Assembly (NCBI GenBank): GCA_044892525.1
Contig: CM097885.1
Coordinates: 16,122,001 to 16,186,000, forward strand
Source: Schmidtea polychroa
Lineage: Eukaryota
Direction: 5' to 3'
Length of the DNA: 64,000 nt
Below, one piece after another: positions 1 through 42,460 of this stretch (within the stretch, counting starts at the first letter, position 1; each line of letters starts with the position of its first letter). Both the position numbers and the translations under genes were made by a program. A model generated the notes under the pieces. The model did no database searches, was not told the DNA's origin, and saw nothing but the letters and a program-made list of their open reading frames with translations.

Positions 1-7629
<7,629 letters not shown>

Positions 7630-8354: not shown

Positions 8355-8443
8355 TTCTGGAGATTGACCATGAATTTACTGGCTTGATTATCTGGATGAA
8401 TAAGCGGGCAACTATTGCTTGGTAAAATAGTATAAAAATTCAC
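8355..8443 (-). pseudogene. Truncated N-terminus of Maverick minor capsid (penton)-like protein
   Basis: FYTILPSNSCPLIHPDNQASKFMVNL resembles the FY.tLPSN...fP.N..s.F...L start of Polinton pentons; overlaps the integrase stop (GTGA); sequence becomes unrelated after NLQK. Confidence 0.65.
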
Positions 8444-9495
8444 TTTACTAGATCCTTTTCTGATATCCATGATGGGTTTTGATAACCATGCCATTTGACA
8501 TAGTATTGTTTATCCTTGCCTTTATTTTTAGTTTTCAAAATCTTCTGAATTCTAAATACTTTTGGGGGAGGAATAACTTGTAATTCCTGCTCATAAAATT
8601 TTCCTTGTACAATATTGTTATCATTGTCTTTGATGACATACATTACAGGATTCTGTTTAGTATTTATTTTTGAAATTACAAAGACTTCATCACTCCAATT
8701 TGTATCAAAATTTTTAATAAATGGTGATGCACTAATTTTACTAATTCTAACATGATCACCTACTTTATATTTCGGTTTTGTAATTTTTTCAGGTTTTTTA
8801 GAATAGATTGTTTTTGACGTGATATCAATCGGCCTTAATCCATTCAGTCCTTGATGTGATGAGTGATTATAACTGGTTATTATTTTTGGTAAAACCAATA
8901 CCCATTTTTTATTACCTTGATGCACGAATAATTTCTTTAATCTATCTCTCAAAGTTCGGTTAAATCTTTCAACATGAGCAGCTTTGTATTGAGAATGTAC
9001 TGAGTAATGGTTTATTTTCAATTTATTGAGGATTTGCTTGACTTTACTGTTGTAGAATTCTTTACCTAAAATAATAATAATAATAATAAAAATAATAATA
9101 TTAATACCTAAATCAGTTTGCAAGTTTTTAGGATGTCCATCTTTAAATAAATGATTAACAGCTTTGGACATTTCATCTGCAGATTTTGCCTTGACGGGTA
9201 TTGCTCGGGCAAACCGACTGAATACATCAATACATGTTAAAATATATTTATACCCATTGTTAATTTTCGAATAGGGTATCATCTCCATCAAATCCATTTG
9301 CCATAAATCATTTATTCCATATGTTTTATATGTTCTTGTTGGGAATCGTTTCCGCATTGGTTTGTTCAAACTGTACGCAAGCTGGTCTGATAACCACTTC
9401 TGTGTTTCCTTTTTCGAATTCGGAACTCTTTTCCTTAATTTTGCCACTCCACCAAAACCGGCTTCGTCTTCCGGGTTCGTCCAAATCTTCTCCAT
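8440..9495 (-). CDS. Maverick retroviral-like (c-)integrase with C-terminal chromodomain; 42-nt GT-AG intron at 9066-9107
   Basis: WQMDLM..., YILTCIDVFSRFA, spliced TDLGKEF, VERFNRTL (DDE triad), YYVKWHGY...SWI chromodomain; first ATG gives MEKIWTNP...GFGG. Confidence 0.93.
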   Translation of the reverse strand: MEKIWTNPEDEAGFGGVAKLRKRVPNSKKETQKWLSDQLAYSLNKPMRKRFPTRTYKTYGINDLWQMDLMEMIPYSKINNGYKYILTCIDVFSRFARAIPVKAKSADEMSKAVNHLFKDGHPKNLQTDLGINIIIFIIIIIILGKEFYNSKVKQILNKLKINHYSVHSQYKAAHVERFNRTLRDRLKKLFVHQGNKKWVLVLPKIITSYNHSSHQGLNGLRPIDITSKTIYSKKPEKITKPKYKVGDHVRISKISASPFIKNFDTNWSDEVFVISKINTKQNPVMYVIKDNDNNIVQGKFYEQELQVIPPPKVFRIQKILKTKNKGKDKQYYVKWHGYQNPSWISEKDLVK

Positions 9496-9556
9496 TACAA
9501 CAAGAAGATTTAATATTAAATTTAATGTCTGGTAATGAAGGATTAGCACCCATTGT

Positions 9557-10051
9557 TTATGATCGACTTCCTATTATTCCACCTAATAATGATATTGCTA
9601 AAGGTATCAATGCACCGATAAATCCCCCTTGTTGTTTATATATAATTTTTCTCATTTGTTGACGATTTTTATTATTTACTAATGATAGCAAAGGTTTCCT
9701 ATGTTTACTCAATAATTGCTTTTTAGATTTACTGATTTTAATCTTGCCTTTGACTACTTTAAGTATAATATCGAGTAAATCATCGACAACATAATTTGGA
9801 AATGATTGCAAAATACTGTTTCTTTTCATACTTGGTGCCTTTAACAATGTATTGAAAAACGGGAAACTCCGATGATTTTTAACAACTTTTACTTTCTTAG
9901 TGGTTTTACTTTTAGTTTTAGGTTTAGGATTTTTCGAAATGAGATTCATTGCAGGAAAATTTTCTGTAATAAGTTCTTTAGATGGAGTATAACTAGTTGT
10001 TGGTGGAACTTTTGGTTGTTTTTTACTCGATATCCTTGTTTTTGAAAACAT
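9557..10051 (-). CDS. Basic core-like virion protein ending in QQGG/F plus amphipathic helix
   Basis: Lys-rich 164 aa; C-terminal KQQGGFIGALIPLAISLLGGII resembles adenain-type cleavage site plus helix of Polinton/adenovirus small core proteins; lies between ATPase and integrase. Confidence 0.7.
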   Translation of the reverse strand: MFSKTRISSKKQPKVPPTTSYTPSKELITENFPAMNLISKNPKPKTKSKTTKKVKVVKNHRSFPFFNTLLKAPSMKRNSILQSFPNYVVDDLLDIILKVVKGKIKISKSKKQLLSKHRKPLLSLVNNKNRQQMRKIIYKQQGGFIGALIPLAISLLGGIIGSRS

Positions 10052-10064
10052 GATTTATGTGTTT

Positions 10065-10702
10065 TCAAATTTGTTTTAAACTTTGTTTATATACCATGGC
10101 GCCTTTTGGGTTGAAAATATCTGTTTTTACGCGTATATCATCAGGGCATTGTTGTGTGAAATCGAGAAATATATACCCATGAGGTATTTTCGTAGCATCT
10201 TGAAATGCACTGATAAGAAAATTACGGTTATTAGGGTATGCTTGTCGTCCAAGAAAATCGATGACAGTTGCATCTCTAGGATTCTTGAAAATAACTAAAT
10301 ATTGTACATTTAAATTACGTGTTCGATGTGCACCACCTTGATGAAATAGATTTTGTGTTATGAAAATAACTGTTACACCAACATGTCTGCTGATTTTTGT
10401 GAATAAATTATTAAAGTCCTTTTTTTATTGGCTTCTTGATACAAATCATCGATAATGATGACATCATCTTTCTTCAAACGACTTGACCAGTTTTTATCAA
10501 AACCCTTTACTATTTTCATGTTTTTCAACTGACAGAAACTTGATTGCGTCAATCCGTGTTCTTCGTCGGCGCCCCTATGCCAATAAATATTGTTGAATTT
10601 TGTTTTGAACAAATTTGATTTTAGTAATTTACAAACAAATAATGTTTTTCCACTACCACTTGGACCAACGATTTGGTATACTGCATCATTTCGTAATTCC
10701 AT
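10065..10702 (-). pseudogene. Packaging ATPase (A32/FtsK-HerA type), frameshifted in an A7 run at ~10420-10426
   Basis: Walker A IVGPSGSGKT and Walker B IIIDDL; the other frame continues LFTKISRHVGVTVIFITQNLF...KNPRD...PHGYIFLD to a TGA at 10065. Confidence 0.9.
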
Positions 10703-10807
10703 TTTTTAAAATTTAAACTATATAATTATTGTTTATATTGATAATTTAAATGAACTCTGTTTTTAAATACCTATATATATCAAAGTTTTTAAAATTATTT
10801 CATTAAA

Positions 10808-11272
10808 ATGCTTTCAAATATAAATTACAGGGCAAAAACTGATGTATCAAAAATGGTATTTCCAATGGGGAAACCACAACAACTTATCAATAGAAGTAAA
10901 AAATATCCAATAATATATTTCAAAACTGGTAAATGTAGAATTATGGGGTGTAAGGAAATAATCAAAGCTAGTGAATATAATGTTTATGATTTAGAAATAC
11001 AATCGATAACCGTAACTTCCGATATAGGTTTTTCTTGTAATTTAAATAATTTGGCTAAATTAATACCATGTGTTTACGAACCAGAATTATTTCCAGCTTT
11101 GAGATATATAAAATATAACCCTATGTGTGTAAATATATTCGCTAGCGGTAAGATAGTAATTCTTGGAATAAAAAATATTGATTACAAATGTATAGTTGAT
11201 AATATCATATCTGAAATTAAATCAATAATTGAAGGAAAAGAATTTTTAGATTTTTTATTATCACTTAATTAA
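10808..11272 (+). CDS. TATA-binding protein (TBP)-like, compact two-repeat core
   Basis: IIYFKTGKCRIMG (repeat 1); IQSITVTSD, YEPELFPALRY, VNIFASGKIVILG (repeat 2), matching TBP YEPELFPGLIY / LIFvSGKvVltG motifs. Confidence 0.88.
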   Translation: MLSNINYRAKTDVSKMVFPMGKPQQLINRSKKYPIIYFKTGKCRIMGCKEIIKASEYNVYDLEIQSITVTSDIGFSCNLNNLAKLIPCVYEPELFPALRYIKYNPMCVNIFASGKIVILGIKNIDYKCIVDNIISEIKSIIEGKEFLDFLLSLN

Positions 11273-11380
11273 TTATTTATCATTCAATTAAAACAAAAAC
11301 ATACTGCAATCTGATTGGATGATAAACAATAGTCATAGGTATAAAAACCCTGTACCATTTCATTTTAATCATAATTCACA

Positions 11381-11800
11381 ATGACCAAGAAAATTTCAAG
11401 CACTGAAAAACCAAAAGTAGTTCCAGAACTTGTACAACCTGTTCAAATGTTCCACAACTACAAAATGTATTTTTTAAAAGAAGAAATCAATATGAAATTG
11501 GTGTCACCGATCAAGCTAATTCCTACCCAATTTCAATTCTTAACCGGCACGCTTTCAATGTTAGATATTAAAACCATAGATGATGTTTTCAAAAGGTTGA
11601 ATACGAATCTATCATGCAATCAAAATGCATTTTTCAACAACCGATATGCAAAATTTTATGATTCCTTTGATGAAATCAGTTTCAAAGAAAACGAAAATTG
11701 GTATATAACAATTACAATCCAAGGATATAAAGTTGATAATAATGATGTGTATTCTCCAATTTGGAAAATTATGTCTGCTAGACTTTCACAGTTATTTTAA
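11381..11800 (+). CDS. Hypothetical Maverick protein, possibly OB-fold ssDNA-binding
   Basis: Clean 139-aa ATG ORF with upstream TATAAAAA (11340) and downstream AATAAA (11811); beta-rich C-terminus WYITITIQGY...YSPIWKI. Function tentative. Confidence 0.55.
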   Translation: MTKKISSTEKPKVVPELVQPVQMFHNYKMYFLKEEINMKLVSPIKLIPTQFQFLTGTLSMLDIKTIDDVFKRLNTNLSCNQNAFFNNRYAKFYDSFDEISFKENENWYITITIQGYKVDNNDVYSPIWKIMSARLSQLF

Positions 11801-11896
11801 TGTTGTATTTAATAAATGTATTTAGTCATATTTGTTTTCGCTTATATTCTATATTTTCTATAAACAAATATATACTATAGTTTTAAAATACTAATA

Positions 11897-12255
11897 ATGA
11901 CTACAGAAAAAGGTTAATATGATTAGTTAATTATCGAATTATTTAATATTTAGAATTTATAATAAACTTTTTATTGGAAAAATTAGCAGAAATATCTGGT
12001 GTGAAAATGGCGGATATATTATCTGTTACAAACGCATTAAATATAGACTGGGTAGCAGAGAGTGAAGATTCGGAATTTGATGAAACAGATGAAGAAAACA
12101 CTCAAGATGATGAGGAAAGCATTCAAGAAATTGATGAACCTATGGAGGAATTTACGGATACTGAACCGTGTGTATATAGGGATTGTATAGATCATGTTGT
12201 TGAAAATGTTATGAACTGTGGAGATGATGAATGTGAATGTGTTAATAAATTTTAG
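11897..12255 (+). CDS. Acidic protein with Cys-rich C-terminus; 41-nt intron at 11913-11953
   Basis: ATG 11897 exon MTTEK splices GT..AG in frame to EFIINFLLEKLAEISG...; D/E-rich middle; C-terminal CVYRDC...CGDDECEC. Confidence 0.6.
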
Positions 12256-12423
12256 TGTATATTTAAAGAATAATATTTAGAATTTAGAAAGTTTTGTCTT
12301 GAATATTTTTACCAGTAATTTTGTGAACAGTACCATTGCAACTTGTTGAATGTGAGTAGAATATTTGTGTGGAGTACCCATAGGGGGACAGAATATCTTG
12401 TCGGATAGATTAAGAGTATATAT

Positions 12424-12490
<67 letters not shown>

Positions 12491-12507
12491 TTAATAATAA
12501 TAATTAA

Positions 12508-12547
<40 letters not shown>

Positions 12548-12589: not shown

Positions 12590-14109
12590 ATGACATTGAA
12601 AAATTAAATGACCTTGAAAAGTAAATGACCTTGAAAATTAAATGACCTTGAAAAAATAAATGACCTTGAAAAAATAAATGACCTTGAAAAAATAAATGAC
12701 CTTGAAAAAATAAATGACCTTGAAAATAATAAATGACCTTGAAAATAATAAATGACCTTGACCTTTTATTAAAAATTTGACCTTGACCTTGATGAGTCAT
12801 CGTTCTAAAAATATTAGACATCGTTGGGTGAGTCATTGGGTGAGTCATTCTCTTTGTTAATATTAATGATGATGATACCTTCTATGGCTCATTCGAAAGG
12901 TCTTGGACTGAGCTTTAAGATGAGGTATCGTCCAATAAATTCGGATAATGGGAACATTAATTTTTGGGATGAAAAAGAGTAGGGGCCCGCCAGACCACTT
13001 AATAATTATATGACCTTGAAAATGATTTTTGGTAAAATGTTAATAACTTTGTCAATAATAATGATGATGATACCTTCATTAGCTCATTCGAAAGGTCTTG
13101 CATTGGGCTTTAAAATGAGGTATCGTCCAATAAAATCCGTTGGTGGGAACATTAATTTTTGGGATGAGAAAAAGTATGTCCCCGCCCGGCCAATTAATAA
13201 TATTTTGAATAATAATAATAATTTAACGTTGAAAAAATGGTGGTCATCAATTGTTAATAACTTTGTCAATAATAATGATGATGATACCTTCTATAAATCA
13301 ATCGAAAGGTCTTGCATTGGGCTTTAAAATGAGCTATCGTTGAATAATTATCGTTGTCGGGAACTCTGTACATTTAAATTTTAAAATATGACCTTGAAAA
13401 AATAAATGACCTTGATGAGTCACGCGACCTTGAAAAAATAAATGACCTTGAAAAAATAAATGACCTTGAAAAAATAAATGACCTTGAAAAAATAAATGAC
13501 CTTGAAAAAAAATAAATGACCTTGAAAAAATAAATGACCTTGACCTTGACCTTGAAAATAATATTTTGAAAAATAAATGACCTTGAAAAATGGTCTCGGT
13601 AAAACTTTAATAACTTTGCCGATGTTAATGATGATGATACCTTCTATGGCTCAATTGAAAGGTCTTAGACTACGCTTCAAAATAAGCTATCTATTAATAA
13701 ATTCGGATAATGGGAACATTAATTTTTGGGATGAGAAAAAGTATGTCCCCGCCCGGCCAATTAATAATATTTTGAATAATAATAATAATTTAACGTTGAA
13801 AAAATGGTGGTCATCAATTGTTAATAACTTTGTCAATAATAATGATGATGATACCTTCTATGGATCAATCGAAAGGTCTTGGACTGAGCTTTAAGATGAG
13901 GTATCGTCCAATAAAATCCGTTGGTGGGAACATTAATTTTTGGGATGAAAAAAAGTAGGGGCCATCCCGGCCAATTAATTAAAACAAAAAATTAAATTAA
14001 AAAAAAATAAATGACCTTGACCTTTTATTTTAAAAAAAAAATTTTTTCCCGGGGGGGGGTATATGTGGTCTGGAGGGGACATGGTCTGGATGGCCCACAT
14101 CATACTACT
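12590..14109. repeat. Maverick right terminal repeat region: ~17-18-bp AAATAAATGACCTTGAAA arrays and larger ~190-bp units
   Basis: Tandem arrays at 12600-12790 and 13385-13585; repeated GATGATGATACCTTC...GAAAGGTCTT...GGGAACATTAATTTTTGGGATG units; ends in ACTACT. Confidence 0.85.
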
Positions 14110-16516
14110 ATAAAGTGACCTTGATATTATTTCTTTTTCTCCAACACGAAATTTATTCTGTTTATTACTTGAAGGAAATTAGTTATCTGTACATTGATAT
14201 TTATAATTTCATTACGCAATGTCACATTCTCGTGTCTCATTGCTTGCATCTCATATCTTTTTTTACGTCCATTCTCATATAAGGTCAAACAACTATGGTA
14301 TGCAGAAATTCGTATGAGGCTTTGTTTCCCGGGTGGTAGATGTTGTAATATTTCTGGAGGTATTGATCGCGCAGGTACTATAATCCTTTTGTTGTTGTCG
14401 TTTGTAGTGTCGTACCATATGCCGCCTATTTATTCCAATTGGAGTGAATTCAACCTATGAATTTCGATTATTGTTTCTTTTTGTTTAGTTTTTAAATTTT
14501 CTAACTCTATGATGGATGACATGTTAAATGCATTGATGTCGGTTTTTATTCTTGATAATGCGTCTGCACTTATGTTAGCTGAACCTGCTATATATTTTAT
14601 TTTACAATTAGTTTGTGAGATATAGTTTAGTTGTCTTATTTGTCTCGGTGAAGGGTTTTTCATATTCATTGCGTTTATTAAGGATTTATGATCGATATGC
14701 ACTTCAAATTTCTTTCCTTCCAATAGGTTTTGGAAATGTCTGATTGTATCAAGTAGCGCTAATAACTCCCTGTCAAAAGTGGAGTATCTCATTTGGTGAG
14801 TTTTAAGTTTCTTTGAGAAGAAAGCTATTGGTCTTTTTTTCGTTATTTTCTTCTTGGAATATCGCTGCGCCCATTGCTAATCCCGAACAATCTGTGTTGA
14901 CTATGTATGGTAATTCTTGGTTGGGATAGCTTAGGATGCTTGCGTTTTTCAGTGTTTTATTTTGCCTGTTCAAAAGCTGTTATTATTTTTTCATTCCAAT
15001 TTATTTTGATGTTTCTCTTTATTTTGTTCAGTTCGTTGAGAGAGGGCTAGCATTTCGCTACATTTTGGTATGTATTTGTGATAGAAGTTGATCATGCCAA
15101 GGAAACGTTTTAGCTCTTTTGTTGTTTTGGGTAACGGATAATTTTTGATCGCTTTGATTTTGTCGTCTAATGATTTTGTGCTGTTTTCGTTTAACAGGTG
15201 TCCCAAATATTTTATTTATGTGTTCAAAAATGCACATTTTTAATGTCAATTTTTAGTTCATGTTTGTTTAATATTTTGAACACGTTTTTAATGTTTTTTA
15301 TATATTCTTTTTTGTTTGCTGATGCTATCAAGATGTCGTCTAGGTATGCGACTGTGTTTTGTTGATTTCAAAATATTTGGTCATGATGCGTTGGAAAGTG
15401 GCTGCTGCGTTTTTTATTCCAAAAGGCATTTTGTTATATTCGAAAAGTCCTATGGGTGTGATGATTGCGGTTTTCTTTGACAAGAATTTGTTGACAGGCT
15501 TTTTCTAAGTCTATTTTGCTGAAAATTTTGGGTTTGTTAAATCTGTTAATGATGTCGTTTATTATTGGAATTGGGTATTTGTCGGCTGTTGTGATATTGT
15601 TTAGTGCTCTGTAGTCTCCACAGGCTCGCCATTCGCCGTTTTCCTTTTCTTTAAGCATGAGAGCTGATGACCAGTTTGAGTTTGAATGTTTGACGATTTG
15701 GTTTTCAAGTAGTTCGTCGAATATTTTCTTAGTTATTTCGAGTTTATTTTTGTCTAATTATCTGACTTTTGCATGGACTGGGTTTCTGTTGCTAATTATT
15801 ATGTGTTCGATTATGCACTTTGTGTTATTGTTTGCCTCTAGTTTATTAGTTATATTTGGTACATTTTGTATCAGTTTTGCGATTTCATTAGGTATATGCC
15901 AGTTTGTTTCTGTTTTAATTGTTTTTGTTTCACCGTGTTGGGCTGTTATTACTCCGATGTCACAATTGATTTGTTTCTTGGATTGTTTAATTTTGTTGTA
16001 TATGTTGTTAGAATTGTTTGGTAAGACCCTTCCATTCTTGCAGTAGACTAGTAGATCGACGTTTGAGAGAAAATCTGCTCCTAAAATGGCTTGTTTGACT
16101 TCAGCGATAGTGAATTGCCAATTGTATTGTGTTGTTGATGGTGATTTTAATGTTTTGTTTCCCGAACGTTTTGATTGGGCTGCCGTTTGCTGCACACAAA
16201 TTCGCGGTTACTGTTTTTGTATTTTTAGTTAAGTAATTCGGTATTAATGAAATTATTGAACCTGAATCAACAAGAAAATTAAGGCCATTGCTATGCACCG
16301 TAAATGTTTAGCTGTCACCAATTGTCGGTGCTATCACTGGTGACTTTATATATATATTTCCTGACTCTTCTTTGTCGAACGAACAAGGTTTTATTCCCAA
16401 ATTTATTGTGTTAGTAACAATAGTTTTGGTTTGTTCGTTTATTAGGGTTGTTCCATCTTTAATTTCTGTCAAAGCTGTTGCGGCTGCCTAATCTTGTATT
16501 TTGTTGTGGATAGTTT

Positions 16517-17379
16517 TGTTGGGTTTTTAATGCAAGTCGGTACTACGGTCTGACTCCTTTGTGTTCTTTTCCAAATAAATAAATAAACAGATAACCCAAC
16601 ACAAAATCTTTATTGACACTGATGCAGTTACACTTTTACACTTGTATTAGTTTACTCACACTTGATACAATCAGGTTTTGTCTGCACTTTTCAATTGCCA
16701 ACAAATCTCACGCAAGGGTAGATCTTCCAACGGGAGATATCCCTTTCTGGTACGTTCGATTTTTTTTAAATGGTTTACTTTCGACTATCTTTGATATTTC
16801 CTTTTTCACTCTCGTCAACTTCTGTTTTCTTTTCTTCGACCAACTGGCATTTTGTTTTCTTGTCAGTTGCTTTTATACTCGCTTGTTAATTGACTTTATT
16901 TTTGCCAATTATTTTTGGTTTTATTTCCCCCGGGCTTCCTCTTGGAGGTCTTATTTAATTGAAGGGAATTTGCTCATTTCCTTTGACGGCGCTTTTTATC
17001 CGGCTAAATTAATTGCCTTCCCGAAATTGGATTTCTCAATTCGCTCGGGTTTTCCATTGTATCGGGTTTCTCATTAGCTCGGGTTCTCCATTAGCTCGGG
17101 TTTCCCATTAGCTCGGGTTTTCCATTAGTTAATTAATTTTTAATTAATTTTTGTTTTTTGTAATTTATTCCTTTTAGGGACCCCCCATTGATTTTATTTT
17201 ATTATAGCTGAACTCGTCTCATTATTTAGCATCCGCCCATACCAGTTTCCCCCAGAAAATATTCATTTTTAAAATTTTGATTTTTTAATTAATATTTTGT
17301 ACTTTAAATTTTTATTTTGAATTTGGTGTTTTTATCAATTTTCACCTCATTTTTGTGCCTCTCTTGTTGAACCCCAACA
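16517..17379 (-). repeat. 3' LTR of 16.6-kb element
   Basis: Direct repeat of 32255-33117; adjacent polypurine tract AAAAGGGGGGAGATA on minus at ~17380-17394. Confidence 0.97.
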
Positions 17380-17608
17380 TATCTCCCCCCTTTTATTTAG
17401 ATTCGACCTCGAATCTGCATGTATATAATAAGTCTAATTTACCATTATAAATAATAATGTTACTAATAACAATAATAATGACGATAATAATACTACCGAT
17501 AATAATAACAATAATTCCTACCGATAACAATAATAACGATAATAACAATAATAGCAATAATTATTATATCTAATTATTATATCTAATTATTATATTATGA
17601 TTTTTTTT

Positions 17609-17671
<63 letters not shown>

Positions 17672-18384
17672 GCAATAATAAACATAATAAAATATAATTA
17701 TATAACAATGAGATTTCCACTAAAGAAAACTCTAAAGAAAACTTAAATCTTAAATTTGACATTCATTAATTAATTCTAATAATAATAATATCAATAATAA
17801 TAATAATATATAAGCAATATACAAGTAAAATAAATTGAAAATTTGAAAAATAAACATTTTAGATATTTCTATTTCTCAATAATTCGATTTATAAATTGAC
17901 AATCCAATTTAGGGATTCTCAATCTTATCAGAAATATTACTAATACTAGATGATTATTTGGTAGATATTTCTCAATAATTCGATTTATAAATTGACAATC
18001 CAATTTAGGGATTCTCAATCTTATCAGAAATATTACTAAGGGAATGGTAGATATTTCTCAATAATTCGATTGTCATGGAATGAAAGGCTAGTGGCATTCA
18101 TCTACAAATCCCATCAAATTAATTAGTCTTGGACTTTCAATTTGCCTGCTAGATTTGGAATTTAGCTGTTCAAGCCAATAATTTTGATTGGCTGTTTTTC
18201 TTCCATTAATAGGTAAGAAATTTTATTTCTCCTTCATAATTTTATTTTTTTAATTCAGGAAATATTTCACGGACAACAGTAACCATTTTCTATTAATTAT
18301 TGTGATGTGCAACAAAATGAGAAAAAGATTATTACTGGAAATCAATGTTCTGGGGGTACATTCAATTCTAATACGTTTAACAAA

Positions 18385-19035
18385 TTATGCTACTTGAGAA
18401 GCAACCAAAAATTACTTTGGAATCCATTAATCAACTAAGAAAACACGGCGAATTTTGTGACGTAGCCTTGATTGTTGGTCAAAAAAAATCTTAGTCCATA
18501 GAATTGTGTTATCTGCATGTAGTCCTTATTTTAAAGCTATGTTTACTGGCGAATTATCTGAATCACTACAAAATGAAGTAATTAAATATTTGGTTATCTT
18601 TATCAAACGATATTAGGTAACATTAAGGGATATCGATGAACGTGCTGTTGAAGCATTGGTAGAATTTTGTTATACATCTCAAATTGTTATTGAAGAATGG
18701 AATGTACAGTGTTTACTACCAGCTGCTTGTTTATTACAATTATCAGAAATTTAAGATGTTTGTTGTGAATTTTTAAAACAGCAGCTTGATCCATCTAATT
18801 GCTTAGGTATCCAAGCCTTTGCTGATACTCATGCTTGTAATGACTTATTAACCATTGCTGATAAATTTACACATCATAATTTTCAAGTACACTTTATTTA
18901 TTATTACCTCAAGATCGTCTTCTTATGCAGGTGGATAAAAAATTTTTTTTTTTTGTTAATATAAACTTATATTGATTATTTGATGAAGCAAAGAATTATT
19001 TATTATTACCTCAAGATCGTCCTCTTATGCAGGTG
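18385..19035 (+). pseudogene. KLHL20: Captured kelch-like (KLHL20/diablo) BTB-BACK fragment with retained 39-nt intron (18578-18616), frameshift and stop
   Basis: [85 protein letters not shown]. Confidence 0.88.
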
Positions 19036-19765
19036 GATAAATTTTTTGTTAATATAAACTTATATCGATTATTTATTATATTGTGTAAAATAACTTTCAG
19101 ATTCTTTGATGATTTAATACAATAAATTGAAACATATATTTAAAATTAATTATCGCAATTGTCACTGTATTAACTGGAAATCGAAAATCTATTTCCAACT
19201 TATGATGGTGCGCAGAAACATGAATATTGTTGATTTCGAAGCGAATATGAAACCATGAAGTATGTAGATATTAGTTAATATAATTTTGTTGATTTTTTTT
19301 TACACTATTTGAAATTCAATTGTCATGGGCCAATTTATAAAATTATATTTAGTTATCAAAGCAAAATAGTCTATACTCCAATTTTATGCCTAGATATAAA
19401 TAAATGGTTTTGGATAAATAAATATAGATATAGAGACACCGAGATACACAGAGAAACTTATAACCAAATATAGATTTAGATACAATATAGTTCCATTTAT
19501 TCATAAACGATTTCAATGGAAAAATCAATGACTACTGACAACCACACATTTCCAATTGTTGTCCAGGGTAGCCAAACTCCGACAATTGGAAACGTGTTTG
19601 TTGTTATACACAATAATAAGTTTATTTATTTATTTAATCATTTATTTACTCTCAATTATTTACTTATTTATTCTTATTTTGGGGTCTAACTGATGCGCTG
19701 TCAATAAATACATGAGACAAAATCGAGTTCACAATTATTTATTTTATAAATACAATATATAAAAA

Positions 19766-21235
19766 TTAATCCATCTTTATTTCTAATCGTTTCGTTTCAT
19801 GCCGATATCGTATTATTGTTTCTTCGCGTTCATATACTACACCATTGACAGTAACAGTGTCTCCGACATCAATGTTCGAAGTTGTTTTTCTCTTTTTGGA
19901 TTTTCTACATTCTGGCATTGGACCATATTCAAGTGTTGGATGTATCCTTATCATCGAAATGCTTTCCATTAATGCGACACCTTCTTCCGCAATTTCTAAG
20001 AATGATTCATTGGCCCACTTCAATTGAATCAATGGATTTTCACTATCCATCGTCACATTCTCCTCGAATGTTAAATCAATTTCTTCAGATTCCATTACAT
20101 CTTCAATTGGAATTTGCGTTAGTTTTTCTGGTATTGCAGTTGATGTTGATTCAATTTCCCGAAGCTTCTTATATTCGTCCCACGAATATCGCTTTGACGG
20201 TTGATTTTTGGGCATCGGTATGTCATCAATCCATTGACTTTCTACTTTCTGGTATACCTTGCGTATACTTTTCACGTCCTCGAGAGCCGAATGAATACTC
20301 ATCTGAGTCTGTTCTCCACATATTTCTTTCACCACTGTTTGTAGTTTGAACCATTCTCCCCTTATGGTTACTCCCATGTTCTGAAGTATTGGTGCTGCTG
20401 CTAGATCTCGAATGCCGTACAATTGTTCAATCCATATCCCCAAGTATTGTAATTCTGCATGTAAATCATGGCCGATCAATATCTTGCCCACTGTCAAGCG
20501 TTGAATTTCTTTTATTGCCACGTATTGATCACATTGGTTCCTGCTAGCCACTTCTGTAATTCCATGGATCCTTGAATTAAAATGTCGGATTTTTCCTCTT
20601 GGAGTGAGGTATACATCTTTTACTACTTTTCCATAATAATTCATAATTGCTATTGCTAAAGGGATCATTTTCCCTTGGTCTGATGTGCCATATTCAGCAT
20701 CAATGAATAATATTCTATTGCGGATTTCTTCTAGATCCATTTCTTTTCTGAGAAACGACATTTTCTTTTTCAACATTTCCTTTGAAATTTTCAATAACAT
20801 TGGGTCTTCTCCTTCAATTAGATGCATCTGTGGTACCTCATCCGCTTCATTCTCAGTTCTGATTTCCACCACCAACGTTGTCTCCTCATTCGCTGCTCGC
20901 AGTGTTCTCCACATGAAGTCCTTCTGCAGCTTCCATGATGTGAATTTTCGGAGTTGCCACCATATTGTATTATCGTTCTTCAGCACTTCCACTGTACCTC
21001 TGATCACGTGTATGTGATATTCTTCCTTCTGAGACAACTCAATTTCATCTGTCAATTTCAATTCTGAATTTCTCCTTATTGTAAACATTCGTATCTTCAT
21101 TCTTCTGTCATCTATCCGCAAATAATTTGGAATTTGTAAATTTTCATTGATTTCGTATAATTGTTGGCTGGCATGATTTTTCTGCATCTTGAAGTAACTG
21201 TCGTAGGTGGATCTTGCCCATTGTACTTGTTCCAT
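19766..21235 (-). CDS. ORF3: DEDDh 3'-5' exonuclease (REX4/ISG20-like) with uncharacterised N- and C-terminal extensions
   Basis: ExoI LFIDAEYG, RIHGIT, ExoII ILIGHDLHAEL, ExoIII HSALEDV; intact 489 aa. Confidence 0.88.
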   Translation of the reverse strand: MEQVQWARSTYDSYFKMQKNHASQQLYEINENLQIPNYLRIDDRRMKIRMFTIRRNSELKLTDEIELSQKEEYHIHVIRGTVEVLKNDNTIWWQLRKFTSWKLQKDFMWRTLRAANEETTLVVEIRTENEADEVPQMHLIEGEDPMLLKISKEMLKKKMSFLRKEMDLEEIRNRILFIDAEYGTSDQGKMIPLAIAIMNYYGKVVKDVYLTPRGKIRHFNSRIHGITEVASRNQCDQYVAIKEIQRLTVGKILIGHDLHAELQYLGIWIEQLYGIRDLAAAPILQNMGVTIRGEWFKLQTVVKEICGEQTQMSIHSALEDVKSIRKVYQKVESQWIDDIPMPKNQPSKRYSWDEYKKLREIESTSTAIPEKLTQIPIEDVMESEEIDLTFEENVTMDSENPLIQLKWANESFLEIAEEGVALMESISMIRIHPTLEYGPMPECRKSKKRKTTSNIDVGDTVTVNGVVYEREETIIRYRHETKRLEIKMD

Positions 21236-21665
21236 TTTTGCTAAAATGGTTATAATTTAACGTTTGAATTTAATTTACTTTTAAAACTAGGGCTGAGATG
21301 AAGTATCCGAAGGATACTGTCCCAGCTACTAGCTGTATAAATAATAATAATAATAATAATTACCGTTTAGTTAATTGTTGATATATTTTTTTTTTGAAAA
21401 TTAATGGAGTTTAATGGATTTTACCCTCTTTTAATACCCTTATGAAAATTCCCTTAACCCCGTTTTTCTCTCCCCCTTAACACAGCGCTAACCAATCAAA
21501 TTGATTCTTTCCGTTGACATTGAAAAGTGCAGATTCACAAGTAAAATAAAATGAATTATTGATCATATCCATAATGAAATAAAATATTAATAATATCCAT
21601 AAAATATTTGTACTATATTGCTACTACTACTTTATCAATTTTGCATGCAAAGTATTTATGTCTTA

Positions 21666-24600
21666 CTACACAAATGTTTCTTCATAAACGATCCAAGGTC
21701 TCGCAATCTCGGATCGATTCGTAGAAGGTTTGGGTATTGTTCGAAATTCAATTAGCACAATGATAATGAGAATAATGAGAGAGATTGTTATAATGAGAGT
21801 AGTTATTAATAATGTGACACACACAATTTCACTGTCAGTTTTTAATGACGATATGGTTTCGTTATTAGTCATTGACTCATTGATGCTAGAGAAGATGATT
21901 ACGTTGGCAGAGCTAGGGGTTCGGTTGGACTGATTTGATTTGTTTCGATTTCCATACTGCGAGTTAATAGATGGAATTTGCACAATTTTATTTTCCACTA
22001 ATGTTAATTGCCATAAATTTGAAAATAGAGAACGTCTATAGTATTTTATTTTAATGAACACAAATTTTGACGTTGATATTGGTGAACGTTGACGAAAAGT
22101 TAATATTTGAGATTTATTTTTTTCATTTAATATCGATTGAATTTTTCCATAATAATATAAAATAGCTTTTTGATTGGGCTCCGCTTGTCGGGTAACGTTC
22201 ACTAATTGATTGAAAATATGAAAAGTAACCCGATTTGTTTCATTAACTAATCGTATCATATGTTGACTAGAGTGTATTCTGATCCATTGACTATCAATTT
22301 CAGTTCCGTTTTCATATAAAGATTTTTCATAATAATGAATCAGAATATTATAGTTATGATGTAATTTTAAATTTGCATACTTTATAAAGGGTTTTCTGCT
22401 ATTCAATGTATCTATCGCATAATTTTGAAAAACTGCTTTTACTTGTTGGGATTCCTGGGGTTCCCAAAATATGTCAATTCCATTTACCAGTGGTTCAATT
22501 GATACTCGATTATGTAATCTCTTTGTCCAAATATTAATACGTATAAGATTTTGTATTTTTGTATTATTACTTTTCGAATCCAATTGCGTAATTAACCAAG
22601 GGTATTCATAATTCATTGTTAATTGTCTAGCCACATAAATATTTTTGGTGCTGTTCAATTTTATTGGGGGTTCGAAATAGTTTATTAGATTATCTATCTC
22701 TATTTCTTCTGCTCCTCCAGCATAATAAACCCAAACTATTTGAGTACATGTTGAATAAATATGAACTTTGTCTAATAATACAACTGTATTAGTTGCATAT
22801 AATGGGAATACTCTCACTGCATTTACTGACATTATATTGATAATCATTACTGTTGTAATCAATAAAACTTTATTGATGTAACTCAATGGAGCAGGGTTTT
22901 TTGTAAACTTTTGTTTAATTACTGGGTTCCCTGCATCTTTATTTGGTTTTGATCTCAATGGATAACGTGATTCATCTTCTATTATCTTCTTGCATCTGTT
23001 TACATGAACGATGATTGTCCCAGCCTTTTTATTGTTTTGTGGACGCAATTTTAAGTTAGTCTCTGTCGTATCACACACTAGATATGGTCCTTTAAACGGT
23101 CGTTGCAATTTCGTTGACAAGCCTTTTGTTGGTTCTGGTTTGTTTATATACACGAGATCTCCAATTTTAATGTCATGCGCCCGTGCGCGTTTATCATAGC
23201 ATTCTTTATACGCTTCTTGATGATGCCTTATGTTAAGTCCAGCTTGGATCCATACTGACTGTAGTCTTTCATGCATAGCTATTTTATAATCTGACACATC
23301 CATATATTGGGAAATAGGTGACTGAAATTCTAGATCGACTGGCATATTGTTTCGTCGTAGATACATGAGATAAAAGGGTGTTTCTCCAGTGCTTTCATTT
23401 ACTGCATTCCGGTATGCAAATAGGCATGGTTTAATGAATAAATCCCAATCCTTTTGTTTCCTATTTACATAGGATGATATCATATTAATTAGTGTCCCAT
23501 TAAATCTTTCAACTAGACCATCTGTTTGTGGATGATATGGTGAGGTACTAAGTTTTAATATACCAAATAAATCTGTAATTGATTTAAATAATTCACTCTG
23601 AAAATTTGTTCCTTGATCTGTAAGTAATTTCTTTGGTGCTCCGTATCGAAAAATAATATTCTCCACAAATATTTTCGCAACTGTTTCTGCTTTCTGATTT
23701 GGCATTGCATAAGCTTCTGGCCATTTAGTAAGATAATCGCAAAAAACGATAATGTATTTGTTGCCATTTGTTGTTTCCGGCAATGGACCAACGATGTCCA
23801 TTGCTGTCATTTCCATTGGCGCCTTTGGCACTGGCATAGGCTTAAGCGGAACTTTTATTTTCCGTCCCGTATTTCGTCTTGTTAGGCATATCTCACACGT
23901 ATGACACCATTGTCTGACATCTTGTTCCATCGTTTTCCAATAATATTTCTGTTTCAATCTTGATAATGTTTTTCGCGCTGATAAATGCCCTCCTAATGCT
24001 CCATCGTGATACAACAACAGCAATGCTTTTCGATGTTTTGTCGGAACAATAATTAACAAATTTTCATTTTGTACACATTTTAACAAACCATCATGAATAA
24101 TGTATTTATGGTTCTCTTCGGCAATATGTTTCCAGTCACTCTCCTTTTTGATTGAGACAGCATGTTGACGTAACTGATTTAATTCCTCGTCATTTTCCTG
24201 ATCATCTTGTAATTTTTCGATATTATTTACCGTTTTAATTGCCAAGAATATTGTATTTTCGCAATTTTTCTCATCTTGATCAACATTATTTTCTACGGGT
24301 ATTCTCGACATAGCATCCGCATTTGCATTTGATTTTCCTGTACGATACTTTATCTCGAAATCATATTCTTGTAACGCAATTGACCACCTAATTAATTTAC
24401 TGGCCGAATCTCTGTGCTTCATTAGCCATTGTAACGGATTGTGATCTGTAAAGACGACAAATTTTCTGCCCACTAGATATTGTCGAAAAGTAGTTATCCC
24501 ATATACCAATGCTAACGTTTTCTTTTCGATTGTTGAATAATTCTTTTCATGAGGTTTCAATGATCTGCTGGCATAAGCAATTACATGATCTTTTTCCCCT

Positions 24601-26486
24601 TCTACTTGCTGTCCTAATACCGCGCCTAATGCGAAATTACTGGCATCTGTCATTAATATAAACGGTTTTTTAAAGTTCGGACATCTTAATATCGGCTGTT
24701 TTATTAAGCTTTCTTTGAGTTTATCAAACGCTTCTTGCTGAGCTGTTGTCCATTTAAATTTTGCTTGCTTTTTCAATAACATGTTCAAAGGTTGTGCTAC
24801 GTGTGAGAAACTTTTAATAAACTTTCTGTAATAACTGGCTAATCCCAGAAATTGTCGAACCTGATCTACATCCTTGGGAATAGGATATTTCCCAATTTTT
24901 TCTACATTTTCTGGATTTGGTTGCAAACCTCGACGCGAAATGATATGACCCACATAAACGACTTCAGATTTCCCCCATTCACATTTGGAGGGTTTTATTT
25001 TTAAGTTTGCTTCTAACAATCGCTTGAATACTGTTTCCACATCCTGCAAATGTTCCTGAAAACTATTCGAAAATATTATAATATCGTCAATATACACTAA
25101 TGCATGTGGTATATCGCGCAAAACAAAATTCATACCTCTCTGAAATGTAGCAGGTGCTCCTGTTAATCCGAATGGTAACACGTTAAACTCATATAGACCC
25201 TTCCCATCTGAAAATGCAGTTTTCCTTCTATCTTCCTCTTTGACTTTAAATTGATTGTATCCTTTATTAAGATCTATTACCGTAAAATATTGCACCTCCC
25301 CCATCTGATCGAACATTTCCTGTGGAACAGGAATAGGATATGTATCTTTTCTCGTTACTTGGTTCAATTTTCGATAGTCGACACAAAATCTTAAATCACC
25401 GTCCTTCTTTTTAACTACTACTATTGATGATGAGAATGGTGAGGAACTATCTTTTATTATATTGAATTCTTTCATTGCTTTGATTTGCCGATCACTTTCT
25501 TCCTGATGTATGTATGGTATTCTGTACGGCCGTAATTTTATTGGGGTTTCGTTGAGTAATGGTATTTCATGCTCAATCACCTGAGTGAGTCCCAGATCAT
25601 ACTCATGTTTTGCGAATACATTTCTATATTTCTTTAATAATGCACCGAATTCTTGTTTTTGCAAATCCGTCAAATCTTTGCTTGTGATCTGAGGTTCTTT
25701 ATAAATTTTTATATTTCTCGGTAACTTCTGAGCTTCCTCTGATTTGATTTTTGTTAATTTTCCCAATTTGGTTTTGGGTTTTATCTCAACGGATCTTGCA
25801 CTATAATTCGCTATTCTAACTGGTACTGACTTATTTTGGACTTTCACTACTTCATCACACATAGGCACATCGTATTTTTCAACCAGCTTTTGATTTGGCT
25901 CAAATATGTACTCCTCATCTGAGACCCTCATAACATCTGCATAGTAGATTACTTCGCTTTTTGGTGGTACTTCCAATGTTTGGTTTAGAAATACCTCTCC
26001 TACTTCAGGCACTACTTCACCCATTTGTCCTTTTATTAGTTTTCCAGTTCTCAGATCAAGAGAGATTCCATGTAGTTGCTCCATGACATCCATGCCAATT
26101 AGACATTTTACAGGACTTTTTCTCATCACTGATACCCAATGAATTATTTCTTGCTCTCCAATTATCAGTTTAACTTCTAATTTTCCAACAATATTTAGTG
26201 CATTATGTGACATTGATTTAATAATGTGATTCGTTGGTTTTATTTTGGCTTTCTCCTGATACGTCAAGAAACTTTCCGCTACTATAGTATGACTTGAGCC
26301 TGAGTCTAATAAAGCTTCCACTTTTCTCTTGTTAAACTGTATGTTTATTCGAGGTTGTTTTCCTCCTACTACTGTTGTCATTAGTGCATAGCTGCATGGT
26401 AGACCAAGCATATTCTTTCTTTCAATTTCAGCACTCGTTGGTTCAATCTTCTCTAATTCGATTGTGATATTATCTACAGGTTTCAT
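21666..26486 (-). CDS. pol: ORF2: Pol (aspartic protease, RT, RNase H, integrase) with C-terminal signal-like segment, ectodomain and TM
   Basis: LLDSGSS; LRFCVDYRKLN, LPFGL, YIDD; TDAS, TDHNPL; HDGALGGH..CEIC, DIVGPL, DQGTNF, GLVERFN; GPY; then two hydrophobic segments. Confidence 0.97.
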   Translation of the reverse strand: MKPVDNITIELEKIEPTSAEIERKNMLGLPCSYALMTTVVGGKQPRINIQFNKRKVEALLDSGSSHTIVAESFLTYQEKAKIKPTNHIIKSMSHNALNIVGKLEVKLIIGEQEIIHWVSVMRKSPVKCLIGMDVMEQLHGISLDLRTGKLIKGQMGEVVPEVGEVFLNQTLEVPPKSEVIYYADVMRVSDEEYIFEPNQKLVEKYDVPMCDEVVKVQNKSVPVRIANYSARSVEIKPKTKLGKLTKIKSEEAQKLPRNIKIYKEPQITSKDLTDLQKQEFGALLKKYRNVFAKHEYDLGLTQVIEHEIPLLNETPIKLRPYRIPYIHQEESDRQIKAMKEFNIIKDSSSPFSSSIVVVKKKDGDLRFCVDYRKLNQVTRKDTYPIPVPQEMFDQMGEVQYFTVIDLNKGYNQFKVKEEDRRKTAFSDGKGLYEFNVLPFGLTGAPATFQRGMNFVLRDIPHALVYIDDIIIFSNSFQEHLQDVETVFKRLLEANLKIKPSKCEWGKSEVVYVGHIISRRGLQPNPENVEKIGKYPIPKDVDQVRQFLGLASYYRKFIKSFSHVAQPLNMLLKKQAKFKWTTAQQEAFDKLKESLIKQPILRCPNFKKPFILMTDASNFALGAVLGQQVEGEKDHVIAYASRSLKPHEKNYSTIEKKTLALVYGITTFRQYLVGRKFVVFTDHNPLQWLMKHRDSASKLIRWSIALQEYDFEIKYRTGKSNANADAMSRIPVENNVDQDEKNCENTIFLAIKTVNNIEKLQDDQENDEELNQLRQHAVSIKKESDWKHIAEENHKYIIHDGLLKCVQNENLLIIVPTKHRKALLLLYHDGALGGHLSARKTLSRLKQKYYWKTMEQDVRQWCHTCEICLTRRNTGRKIKVPLKPMPVPKAPMEMTAMDIVGPLPETTNGNKYIIVFCDYLTKWPEAYAMPNQKAETVAKIFVENIIFRYGAPKKLLTDQGTNFQSELFKSITDLFGILKLSTSPYHPQTDGLVERFNGTLINMISSYVNRKQKDWDLFIKPCLFAYRNAVNESTGETPFYLMYLRRNNMPVDLEFQSPISQYMDVSDYKIAMHERLQSVWIQAGLNIRHHQEAYKECYDKRARAHDIKIGDLVYINKPEPTKGLSTKLQRPFKGPYLVCDTTETNLKLRPQNNKKAGTIIVHVNRCKKIIEDESRYPLRSKPNKDAGNPVIKQKFTKNPAPLSYINKVLLITTVMIINIMSVNAVRVFPLYATNTVVLLDKVHIYSTCTQIVWVYYAGGAEEIEIDNLINYFEPPIKLNSTKNIYVARQLTMNYEYPWLITQLDSKSNNTKIQNLIRINIWTKRLHNRVSIEPLVNGIDIFWEPQESQQVKAVFQNYAIDTLNSRKPFIKYANLKLHHNYNILIHYYEKSLYENGTEIDSQWIRIHSSQHMIRLVNETNRVTFHIFNQLVNVTRQAEPNQKAILYYYGKIQSILNEKNKSQILTFRQRSPISTSKFVFIKIKYYRRSLFSNLWQLTLVENKIVQIPSINSQYGNRNKSNQSNRTPSSANVIIFSSINESMTNNETISSLKTDSEIVCVTLLITTLIITISLIILIIIVLIEFRTIPKPSTNRSEIARPWIVYEETFV

Positions 26487-26543
26487 TTCTTTTAATTGTT
26501 CATTTGGATATATTGGTGCTGTTGGTCTAAATGTCGGGGTATA

Positions 26544-29500
26544 TCATCTACTAAGAGTATCAATCCCGCTTAATTTTGGCATTGGTTCAAGCAAGAACCT
26601 GGACTCTGGCTCTACTTTACTCTTTATTACACTTTTTCGAAAGCATTTATACTCCGATTCCCCGTTGTTGTTATCATCATTATGATCGTCGTTTTTATCT
26701 TCCGACTGACACGTCGATTCCTCACTTTTTCGGCCATTTCTTAATTGTGCCCTTACTCTTGCCATTTCTTTAAATTGATGATCTGTAATAAAGAATCTAG
26801 CCAACAATGGAATACAACCAATAACTAATTTCCATGACCATCCCGATATTGCGTATATTCGATGTACTGACAACATTTGCGACACTACCACCTTTGCCGT
26901 TATCATAATCACGTAAATTCCAATTAAACCTGCACATGCTTGTCCCAAAAACATGAACTTGCCCCAAATCTTTTCCATCGTTTTATATGTAGCTCGTTTG
27001 AAATGATCAGGTGTTAGCAAATTTTCGTAATTTACTGTTCCTTCTCCATTCGGTAATACTGTGTCAATCATTTCTGAAATTATCCGTTCCTTTTTGGATG
27101 GAAACAACAAATTCCTTTGAGCTTCTTCAATATCTTCGCTTGCATACAAGCCCATTTGTGCCATTTTGTTTAGTGATGTGAAATTTATCAGGTATTCTAA
27201 ATTTGTTAATTCTAGTTTGTCTGGAGTCTTGACCCCACGATAATCTGGTAAGGCTATCCATGAGTCTGTAGCTAATCGGTATAAAGGGGCTAATAATCGA
27301 TTGCATTGCAAAAGTTTTGGTTTAGTTTGTTCATCAAGCAAGATTCTAGTTATCGGTTCCATAAATCGTACCTTTCCCCCAAAGCTTACTGGTAATTCAT
27401 TCGTACATTTTTCGTATTTGGCAATTTTCACTGTGACTTCTTTGCATTTGTAACTGTATAATGCTTCTCCAAATATTCTCGCAAACACTCCATTTTCTGA
27501 TATTAGCATAGGTGCTACTAAATTTGGATTCGTAATTGCCATCGCCATCCGATTTCGGAGAATCTCTTTATTCAACTTACAATCGTTCAGAATCATTTCT
27601 CTATATACATTTTCCATGATGTTTTGACTAAAATGAAACAAATAATCAATTTTATTATTAAAATAATGAGTAAGTTTAATGTCATCTCTGTGAATTTTAA
27701 TTTTTGCTTCTTCCACAACATTTCTAGACACGTAAACACCTTTATAATTTGTTACATATACCATTCGACCACATTTATTTGTGATTTCCTTTTTTATAAA
27801 TCGCATTCCATCTGCTGGTAACGTAGACATTATAACTGTTCCCATTTGCTTTGTCCATACTGGGGTTGATTTAATGGTATTATTTGGTCTATAATTCATA
27901 TTGAAATTATCTGGTTTATCTCTAAACTGTTCTCCTACTAGCTCTTTAAAGTTCATAGTTTTTAAGTGCGCTAAATTACACTTATTTGTTTCTACATTAT
28001 AAACAAGAATCGATTCCCCTGTTTGACAATGTGTTTGTTTCATATTACAGAATGGATGAGTTTGTAATTTTCCCGTATCATCATCGAAAGCTCCTTCGAA
28101 CTCTCTCAACTCCGTGAGATATTCTTCTAGCACCACTGTTTGCTGAATAATTTTACCGTTCATTTTATATGGTTCACCTTCACAGTCGCCATTTGCTTTC
28201 ATAGCTCCCTTTACAATTATTGTTTCCCGTATTCTATGGTTCAATTTTGCCTTTAAACGAATTTCTGGACTTATTTTTAATTCTCCTGTTTGAAATGCTG
28301 CTAGACAGTTTTCTGGAAGCACCTCGACTGGCCTAGGTATCGCATGCATTTTTATGAGTGACGTATGGCTCCATTTACCACAATAAAATACAAATGTTGT
28401 ATGTTTGACAATACACTCTCTCACTTGAGTTCTTCGCAGATCAGACTCTTGATACACATAATATTTTACGTCATTTTCTATTTTTAAACTGCTCGGATAC
28501 GCACCTGGGCATTCCGACATATCTACTACCGAATAGACTTTTCCCATTTCAGTTTGGGAACAATCGTACGCAACTAAAGATGATGTCTGTGTAATTATTG
28601 CACAAAACGTAATCACCATAAACATCGCCCATGGAAATATCATAGTTTTTCTTAGTTCTGGCTTAACTCTTTCATTTACTCGTCTTTGGGGTGGGCTCAT
28701 TTCTTGCTTCTCATTTTTCTTGTCTGTTAGAGATGAACACAGTGTTTTCCAACCACCTTTTTCGTTTACCCAGCTCATTAAATATTCGTTTACTAGCCGG
28801 GCAGCGATGTCTATCAAATTTTCTAACTTGTCTGACCTTGCGAACGTATGCGTTCCAATTTCTAAAACAACATAAGTTAAAGCTATTATTATAACTTCCT
28901 TATTAATTTCATTTTTTGCCAAATTTTCAATTACTGATCTCTCGCAGAATGTATTCTCTTCGCCAAATTTCTGCATCACTTCAGGGAGCCTATTCTTCAT
29001 CTCTTTAACTATTTCTTTCAGTTCATCCTCTACCTCTATTTCTATGTCGAACATTGGATATACTGCTTTAACGAGATGTTTCAACATTTTCTTAGTTTCG
29101 TCGACGTCCTGTTCTAACCTCACTAAATATTTCTTTATTTCATATAAAGTTCTAACTTTCTTATTTTTGATTTCACCATTTATTTCGCCTTCAGGTACAA
29201 GTGGCTCTCCTTGTACGTCTGGTTCTGTGGACTGATCTTTGTTATCAGGATCTTTTTGCTCATTATCACTAACGATTTGATCAATTTCTTTATTTCCCTT
29301 AACTTTTTCATCTTGTTCCTCTGTGTCAGGCTTGTTAGACTCAATATTTACTTCTAAACTCACCCCTTTTACTACGACTATATGGTTCACTAAATATTCC
29401 ACTCGTCCATCTCGGATCAAATATCCGTTTTCATCCAGCTCTTGGGGTACACACCCACAATCGTATAGGTATTCATCATCGTCAAGTTCTTCACCTTTGT

Positions 29501-32250: not shown

Positions 32251-32254
32251 AATA

Positions 32255-42394: not shown

Positions 42395-42460
<66 letters not shown>

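Follow-up and report, generated by a model that had tools for sequence, protein, structure and literature searches.

Why would a Maverick/Polinton element carry a gene resembling the one that encodes TATA-binding protein (TBP), and which promoters could the encoded protein serve? The question is raised by an open reading frame (ORF) in a 64,000-nucleotide stretch of Schmidtea polychroa DNA, referred to below as the window. An earlier note on this DNA described the ORF as intronless and divergent from a block of Maverick genes, and it runs indeed from ATG to stop at 10808-11272 of the plus strand, encodes 154 amino acids with no intron needed, and faces away from a minus-strand ATPase-core-integrase-minor capsid block, with 105 nt between the start codons. 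The features of the element that are present in the window, together with the hexamer ATAAAC discussed further below, are the following:

8355..8494 (-): minor capsid (penton) gene, 5' stub; the element is truncated at 8355
8440..9495 (-): integrase of retroviral type with a chromodomain (Pfam rve, E 4.8e-8, and Chromo)
8508..8513 (-): ATAAAC word within the integrase 3' end, 5' of the minor capsid start
9326..9553 (-): small ORF with the start MG..S..CC, a start kept in metagenomic Maverick relatives
9555..9560 (-): ATAAAC word, 65 nt 5' of the integrase start
9557..10051 (-): 164-aa basic protein with a C-terminal GGF-hydrophobic tail, putative core protein
9634..9639 (-): (T)ATAAAC word within the core-protein 3' end
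10065..10702 (-): A32-like packaging ATPase, frame broken in the window copy
10085..10090 (-): (T)ATAAAC word within the ATPase 3' end, 39 nt 5' of the core-protein start
10731..10736 (-): (T)ATAAAC word, 34 nt 5' of the ATPase start, candidate late promoter
10772..10779 (+): ordinary TATATATA box, 36 nt 5' of the TBP-like start, candidate early promoter for host TBP
10808..11272 (+): TBP-like gene, 154 aa; repeat 1 without its two helices, repeat 2 complete
11381..11800 (+): 139-aa conserved Maverick gene, with TATAAAAA at 11340-11347 and ATTGG at 11314-11318 upstream
12007..12255 (+): 82-aa acidic ORF, present also in copies bounded by terminal inverted repeats (TIRs)
12590..14109: arrays of subterminal repeats and the end of the Maverick (14109; 5'-AGTAGT on the minus strand)

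Two of these genes were not assigned to any family: the 164-aa basic protein gave no Pfam family above cut-off, and family searches returned nothing for the 139-aa gene, which is a frequent neighbour of the TBP-like gene (17/56 loci). The small ORF at 9326-9553, with its MG..S start and Cys-Cys pair, may resemble a lipid-modified virion peptide.

The window copy itself is a broken, dead remnant, and the function of its TBP-like gene belongs to the family. The minor capsid gene is cut at 8355 and everything beyond its start is absent; no major capsid, protease or polymerase was found in this copy, and the ATPase frame has a one-base gap about 280 nt in. It matches a natural TIR-bounded copy at 97.9%, over 8355-12545 only, and around its TBP-like gene two subfamilies are joined in a mosaic (window:11284). 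A natural TIR-bounded copy at G000:C1 (about 69362085-69378439) is 16.4 kb long and flanked by a clean 6-bp target duplication. The placement of the TBP-like gene inside the terminal repeat, proposed in the earlier note, does not hold for the window copy or for TIR-bounded copies: comparison of the window and 10 kb upstream with itself revealed no second inverted arm, between the end of the ORF and the AGTAGT terminus (14109) there are 2.8 kb, and in the G000:C1 copy the gene is separated by 1.05 kb from the inner edge of the TIR, which is about 1.3 kb long. It is correct only for some mirror-image derivatives with giant inverted arms, described below.

Other elements share the window. At 185-7629 there are inverted arms of 1.3 kb that contain two Maverick-type AGTAGA termini; no Maverick gene lies between them, and the same Gypsy fragment is found outside each arm in inverted orientation. 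An LTR retrotransposon of 16.6 kb (16517-33117; 863-bp LTRs at 99.8%), which resembles giant planarian retroelements, encodes a 1606-aa pol and, in an ORF of 1770 aa, zinc knuckles, stretches that weakly resemble ubiquitin and Bcl-2, and the domain of a viral fusion glycoprotein (Monjiviricetes_fusion, E 1e-87). This retrotransposon splits a Gypsy copy (14260-16519 and 33119-34206) that is 85-88% similar to a Gypsy element with 786-bp LTRs at 54077-60222. A TRAF-like host gene (RING, zf-TRAF, MATH) is present as a 1.8-kb inverted duplication at 41555-44477 and 62221-64000, and another TRAF-like piece lies upstream of the window.

Is the encoded protein a TBP? By sequence, it matches Pfam PF00352 with 55.4 bits (cut-off 22.9; E 5.6e-15) over residues 62-125, and all 35 of its sequence matches in the PDB are TBPs (best E 6.7e-17). 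The AlphaFold2 model built on an alignment of 79 homologues (pLDDT 96.1, pTM 0.85) has the two-repeat saddle; its Foldseek matches at E<=0.001 are all TBPs (44), and VIA-align superposes residues 1-145 on yeast TBP 66-240 (Z 12.6, rmsd 2.5, 143 residues), the next row that is not a TBP reaching Z 6.5. Thus the predicted fold is that of TBP, as the earlier note had expected, and its remark on a more degenerate first repeat was, if anything, too mild, since the second repeat alone scores by sequence and the only helices in the model are at 79-85 and 127-153. Where the helices of repeat 1 would lie, the homologues have 17-31 residues (median 19) vs 32 in plant TBP, so that the two helices per repeat of a canonical TBP are not present. 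Cellular and archaeal TBPs (PF00352; PDB 2z8u, 7o4i_O, 1mp9) share with the Maverick protein the order of the ten strands and the YEPELF stirrup, but are only 22-29% identical to it, retain the helices of repeat 1 and stand apart from its long-branched, separate clade. Viral TBPs gave weaker structural matches, at 9-23% identity.

The residues expected to meet DNA and protein partners were located by alignment to plant TBP, and their conservation was counted over the 79 homologues; yeast TBP numbers are fitted through the same alignment. Three of the four intercalating phenylalanines, F38, F95 and F111 (yeast F116, F190 and F207), are kept in 79/79, and the fourth (F99) is proline in 79/79. 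The first central asparagine (N69) is kept in 75/79, the second (N159) has become serine in 78/79. On the DNA face polar residues have replaced V71 (N6, Asn in 78/79) and V122 (R44, Arg in 79/79), T124 is methionine in 79/79, and three further changes, I194 to Arg (R99, 78/79), V203 to Cys (C107, 79/79) and L205 to Asn (N109, 79/79), coincide with the three positions that are altered in the yeast specificity mutant TBPm3, which reads TGTA (PMC1636458). The acidic C-terminal stirrup is untouched, E91 and E93 (yeast E186/E188) being present in 79/79; these two glutamates are the main TFIIB contacts of TBP (PMC10005294), and contact with TFIIB is accordingly predicted from their conservation. Taken together, the residue pattern shows a DNA face that was rewritten and then held invariant, a TFIIB surface that was kept, and convex helices of repeat 1 that were dropped. 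The changes of F99 to Pro and N159 to Ser could also weaken DNA bending.

The TBP-like gene is a stable part of the family. In the host genome (781 Mb, AT-rich, with animal-like gene content) a protein search gave 4136 first-look candidates, and the 150 of them that were scored are 97-100% identical and open in all but one case (149/150 without stop). In order to avoid selection on the TBP-like gene itself, 30 copies were chosen through their ATPase, as the top 30 of the 150 that were scored: all 30 carry the gene, which is open in 29 (154 aa in 28 of these, 151 aa in the other) and has an internal deletion in one, and so do the TIR-bounded copies. The latter are 15.8-16.4 kb long and are ordered TIR, acidic ORF, 139-aa ORF and TBP-like gene, followed on the opposite strand by ATPase, core, integrase, minor capsid, 120-aa ORF, major capsid, protease, pPolB and TIR. 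They are Mavericks by their possession of both pPolB and a retroviral-type integrase, and by TIRs with AGT-type ends and a 6-bp target duplication; the ATPase matches Pox_A32 (E 2e-7), the protease of a relative matches Peptidase_C5 (E 1e-7), and a protease frame is found in 6/6 own-genome copies. The two capsid genes, which gave no Pfam match, are presumably such from their position and from known motifs. The gene set (pPolB, integrase, A32-like ATPase, protease and both capsid genes) is that of animal Mavericks/Polintons (adintoviruses, proteoviruses), as are the AGTAGT termini, the 6-bp target duplication and the length of about 16 kb (PMC8097293). In one 1a copy (L046) the protease frame after the major capsid gene is open and has the catalytic motifs with no in-frame ATG at its start, for which splicing or a non-ATG start is possible.

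Two further Maverick families in this genome carry the TBP-like gene, at 53-60% identity. Between the three families dN is 0.29-0.38 and dS, near saturation, 1.1-2.6; a closer metagenomic pair gave dN/dS values of 0.073/0.222, and 16 changes among 28 near-identical copies give a variant ratio of 0.41. By these substitution patterns the gene is under purifying selection. Families 1 and 2 appear to have swapped modules (L119/L120 vs L046/L047), with dS of 0.66-0.76 in ATPase and capsid genes and 2.3-2.6 in the TBP-like gene. Another amplified Maverick family of the same host (L187-L192; L051/L033) has a PLA2-like domain fused to its integrase and no TBP-like gene; in one case the polymerase gene of this family harbours a nested TBP-bearing element (L051/L033). 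A locus that seemed to combine two capsid modules with a TBP-like gene facing the polymerase proved to be such a case of nesting, two Mavericks of which one lies within the other's polymerase gene. The mirror-image derivatives mentioned above were obtained from seven loci selected for two opposite-strand TBP-like matches: in 7/7 the TBP-bearing end is duplicated, with arms of 4.4-7.6 kb where listed, and none has a whole polymerase gene. Three of them have matching 6-bp target duplications that look fresh (G000:C1:4159947-4177112, C1:224755239-224771426 and C4:60546841-60558613), which suggests that fold-back genomes were integrated as units.

The gene is also found beside Maverick genes outside this genome. 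Among 121 candidates, 97 were homologues (32-97% identity), and the 79-sequence profile collected 717 representatives at E<=1e-10, ordinary TBPs among them. At 55 metagenome loci a core Maverick gene accompanies the TBP-like gene in 25 and some element gene in 42; for the 20 loci of at least 3 kb the figures are 15 and 19, and the association that the earlier note proposed to look for elsewhere is therefore there. Two loci (L058, L060) are near-complete Mavericks with both pPolB and the TBP-like gene, and a Maverick that was found by its capsid gene alone (L166) carries it too. The contigs L166 and L167 are filed in bacterial MAG records and are probably misbinned eukaryotic or viral DNA. Accessory genes of related Mavericks include those for a ubiquitin-conjugating enzyme and for a dual-specificity phosphatase (L058:222-719, L054:4008-4319). 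A more distant TBP type stands beside ATPase and integrase in L100 and beside a PLA2-like gene in L108; its predicted model retains helix 2 of repeat 1, so that helix loss would be a later step within the Maverick-borne clade. In IMG/VR the search found one ordinary NCLDV-type TBP only, and no relatives by ATPase or capsid.

In a quick, midpoint-rooted tree of 79 rows, i.e., 69 Maverick-type sequences (most without known context), nine cellular ones (six from this genome, three of these being single-exon pieces) and one NCLDV-type, the Maverick-type rows are split from all the rest by a branch of 1.24 with SH-aLRT 100. This comparison with host TBP, also suggested by the earlier note, argues against a recent capture from the host; the one NCLDV-type TBP groups with the cellular TBPs, apart from the Maverick-type clade. 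On the sequence evidence the TBP-like gene is a stable gene of this Maverick lineage. Among the genes of the host are several divergent TBP paralogues, whose two repeats share an open frame, and intronless TFIIB-like genes of 304 aa that form an array (L112, L113, L114, L175).

Which promoters, then, could such a protein serve? The 100 nt 5' of each start codon were collected from the 55 metagenome loci and four own-genome copies, near-duplicates were removed, and all 6-mers were counted with none preselected; some of the start codons were set automatically and may be wrong. The top 6-mer is ATAAAC, present in 66/77 regions upstream of structural genes vs 8/70 others, counts that are not independent because the sequences are related. 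It precedes the ATPase in 16/16, core in 8/12, integrase in 8/9, minor capsid in 7/9, the 120-aa gene in 6/7, major capsid in 9/9, protease in 4/5 and the 161-aa neighbour in 8/10 regions, and for each of these eight structural classes 0/200 shuffles reach the observed count. In the other classes it occurs before 4/43 TBP-like genes, 4/18 of the 139-aa genes and 0/9 pPolB genes. The word is oriented (2/77 structural regions have it on the reverse strand), is usually extended by T before (47/61) and A after (52/61), and lies 8-98 nt from the start codon, 33/66 at 28-41 nt. One-base variants occur in at most six regions each, except for changes at positions 2 and 6, and the final base is C in 66 vs A in 15, T in 15 and G in 5. 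In two held-out elements it stands before 10/13 structural starts, and in L166 it precedes neither the TBP-like gene nor pPolB. TBP-like genes themselves are preceded by the ordinary TATAWAW in 25/43 cases, vs a shuffled mean of 13.2 that no shuffle raised to this count (0/200).

Most of the words sit near the 3' end of the preceding gene, and there the codons seem to obey the word. In the last 45 codons of four genes 28/43 Ile-Asn pairs are written ATA-AAC, vs 16/161 elsewhere, with a Fisher p of 7e-13 that is overstated because the loci are related and overlap the discovery set; in another frame, where ATPase and integrase end, the word is read as (Y/D/H/N)KQ. This codon choice indicates that a word inside coding sequence is kept at the DNA level.

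The reading that we prefer, and hold to be rather probable, is that the TBP-like protein serves as a viral late transcription factor for Pol II, in the manner of the herpesvirus vTBPs, the link between protein and motif being their co-occurrence. In an early step host TBP would transcribe the TBP-like gene from its ordinary TATA box. The viral TBP would then bind TATAAAC, which may be a weak site for host TBP. The N-proximal repeat of TBP contacts the 3' half of the TATA box (PMC1636458), and the remodelled first repeat would thus face that half of the word in which the C lies. The stirrup that was kept would bring TFIIB, and with it Pol II, to the genes for packaging, integrase and capsid. 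TFIIA, TAF1, Brf1 and similar partners bind the convex face of TBP, and the missing helices would free the viral protein from them. Against this reading speak the changes of F99 and N159, the wide spread of distances between word and start codon, and the presence of the word before a few TBP-like and 139-aa genes. The earlier note had proposed that the element redirects host Pol II/III to its own promoters. The shared TATAAAC and the invariant TFIIB stirrup lend redirection as such real, if indirect, support; Pol II is favoured over Pol III, since the targets are protein-coding and the N-terminal helix, which Brf1 uses, is lost.

The best surviving alternative, improbable in our estimation but to be taken seriously, is that TATAAAC is a weak TATA box for host TBP, the viral protein being a general booster of TBP activity at all promoters of the element, with no specificity of its own. 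TATAAAC is one base off the consensus TATA box, TATAAACG has 27% activity in plant cells (PMC10005294), the title of PDB entry 1qn3 is that of a plant TBP on a C(-25) TATA variant, and three of the four phenylalanines are retained. If any TATA sufficed, however, neither the invariant polar swaps on the DNA face nor the strict C would be expected, and the TBP-like gene itself has ordinary TATA boxes. A control was provided by three TIR-bounded copies of the second amplified Maverick family of this host (2773 candidates): among their 494 frames no TBP-like frame was found at E<1, and there is no ATAAAC at promoter distance, with one at -9 in two copies only. Since this TBP-less control is one distant family, the word may also be a lineage trait that host TBP reads; close TBP-less Maverick relatives were looked for as a motif control, and none were found.

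Somewhat less credible still is a decoy, a protein that, away from DNA, binds to TFIIB or to regulators of host TBP and so damps or remodels host transcription, the word being read by something else. The stirrup is invariant while the equivalents of F99 and N159 are lost, as such a role would permit, and cellular TBP-like factors that lack the phenylalanines do not bind TATA. Nevertheless, the new residues of the DNA face are invariant and not drifting (79 sequences, 32-59% identity), and motif and gene co-occur. We give little credence to a role confined to DNA ends or origins, where the protein would bend DNA for protein-primed replication, integration or packaging and have no part in transcription: TBP folds are established benders of AT-rich DNA, and the gene lies in the terminal arm that is duplicated in the mirror-image derivatives, but an invariant TFIIB stirrup would be useless there, and the derivatives are uninformative on function because they were picked for having two copies. 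Least likely of all, and hardly credible, is that the word is a host forkhead site (consensus RYAAAYA, which ATAAACA fits) or a polyadenylation-type signal, unrelated to the viral TBP. The position of most words, close to where the upstream gene ends, would agree with this; but GTAAACA, the commonest form of the forkhead site, and the reverse form are each found 0 times in the 77 regions, and the word is present in 16/16 ATPase regions, even where no same-strand gene ends upstream.

The preferred reading, a late factor for Pol II, has its closest counterpart in the herpesvirus vTBPs (KSHV ORF24, EBV BcRF1, HCMV UL87), with which the Maverick protein would share a polar DNA face, a private TATA variant and virion genes as targets. 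The herpesvirus proteins also have a polar DNA face and read TATTWAA; ORF24 is a large multidomain protein that needs other viral factors, with which it forms a complex of six; it has lost the acidic residues for TFIIB and makes direct contact with Pol II (PMC12529657). In contrast to these vTBPs, with their Pol II-binding N-terminal domain and C-terminal DNA domain, the Maverick protein, at 154 aa, is a stand-alone TBP core that keeps the TFIIB stirrup, and its structural similarity to BcRF1 is weak (E 0.02). It is not homologous to the vTBPs beyond the TBP fold and does not belong among them. The TBP-like proteins of NCLDV and mirusviruses are likewise virus-encoded TBP folds (PMC10132985), and differ in their low identity to the Maverick protein, given above. 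NCLDV and mirusviruses mostly bring their own RNA polymerase.

As for Mavericks, the core genes of vertebrate elements are given with no TBP, and neither TBP nor TATA is mentioned in the portions of the two papers covered here (PMC8097293, PMC10748475); the portion of PMC12220804 that was covered has nothing relevant on TBP. A 'TBP' label is defined in the legend of Fig. 5 for MELD viruses, mostly from non-animal datasets (PMC8502044 and its preprint), and is absent from the one supplement file of that paper that was searched. A TBP gene in a Polinton-like element has thus been labelled before, and an analysis of it was not found in those parts of the source. No description of the gene family or of the word was met with in the literature covered, which was mostly open-access text.

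How far does the mechanism extend? It is about an even bet that in a wide lineage of animal Mavericks a true early/late transcription cascade is run by a single minimal TBP of 150 aa, shorn of regulatory helices and with its specificity shifted to TATAAAC, protein and word forming an orthogonal pair on host TFIIB and Pol II. Mavericks have no RNA polymerase, and how they time their capsid genes and whether they make virions are the questions that this finding addresses; a dedicated TBP and a sharply defined late-promoter word are what marks the life cycle of an autonomous nuclear virus. The TATAAAC word also offers a new handle for the annotation of Maverick genes. If the late-factor reading is true, this would be the smallest natural TBP with changed specificity, which would show what surfaces of TBP are dispensable and could provide an orthogonal promoter tool, and the question with which we began would be reducible to one small protein and one 7-base word.
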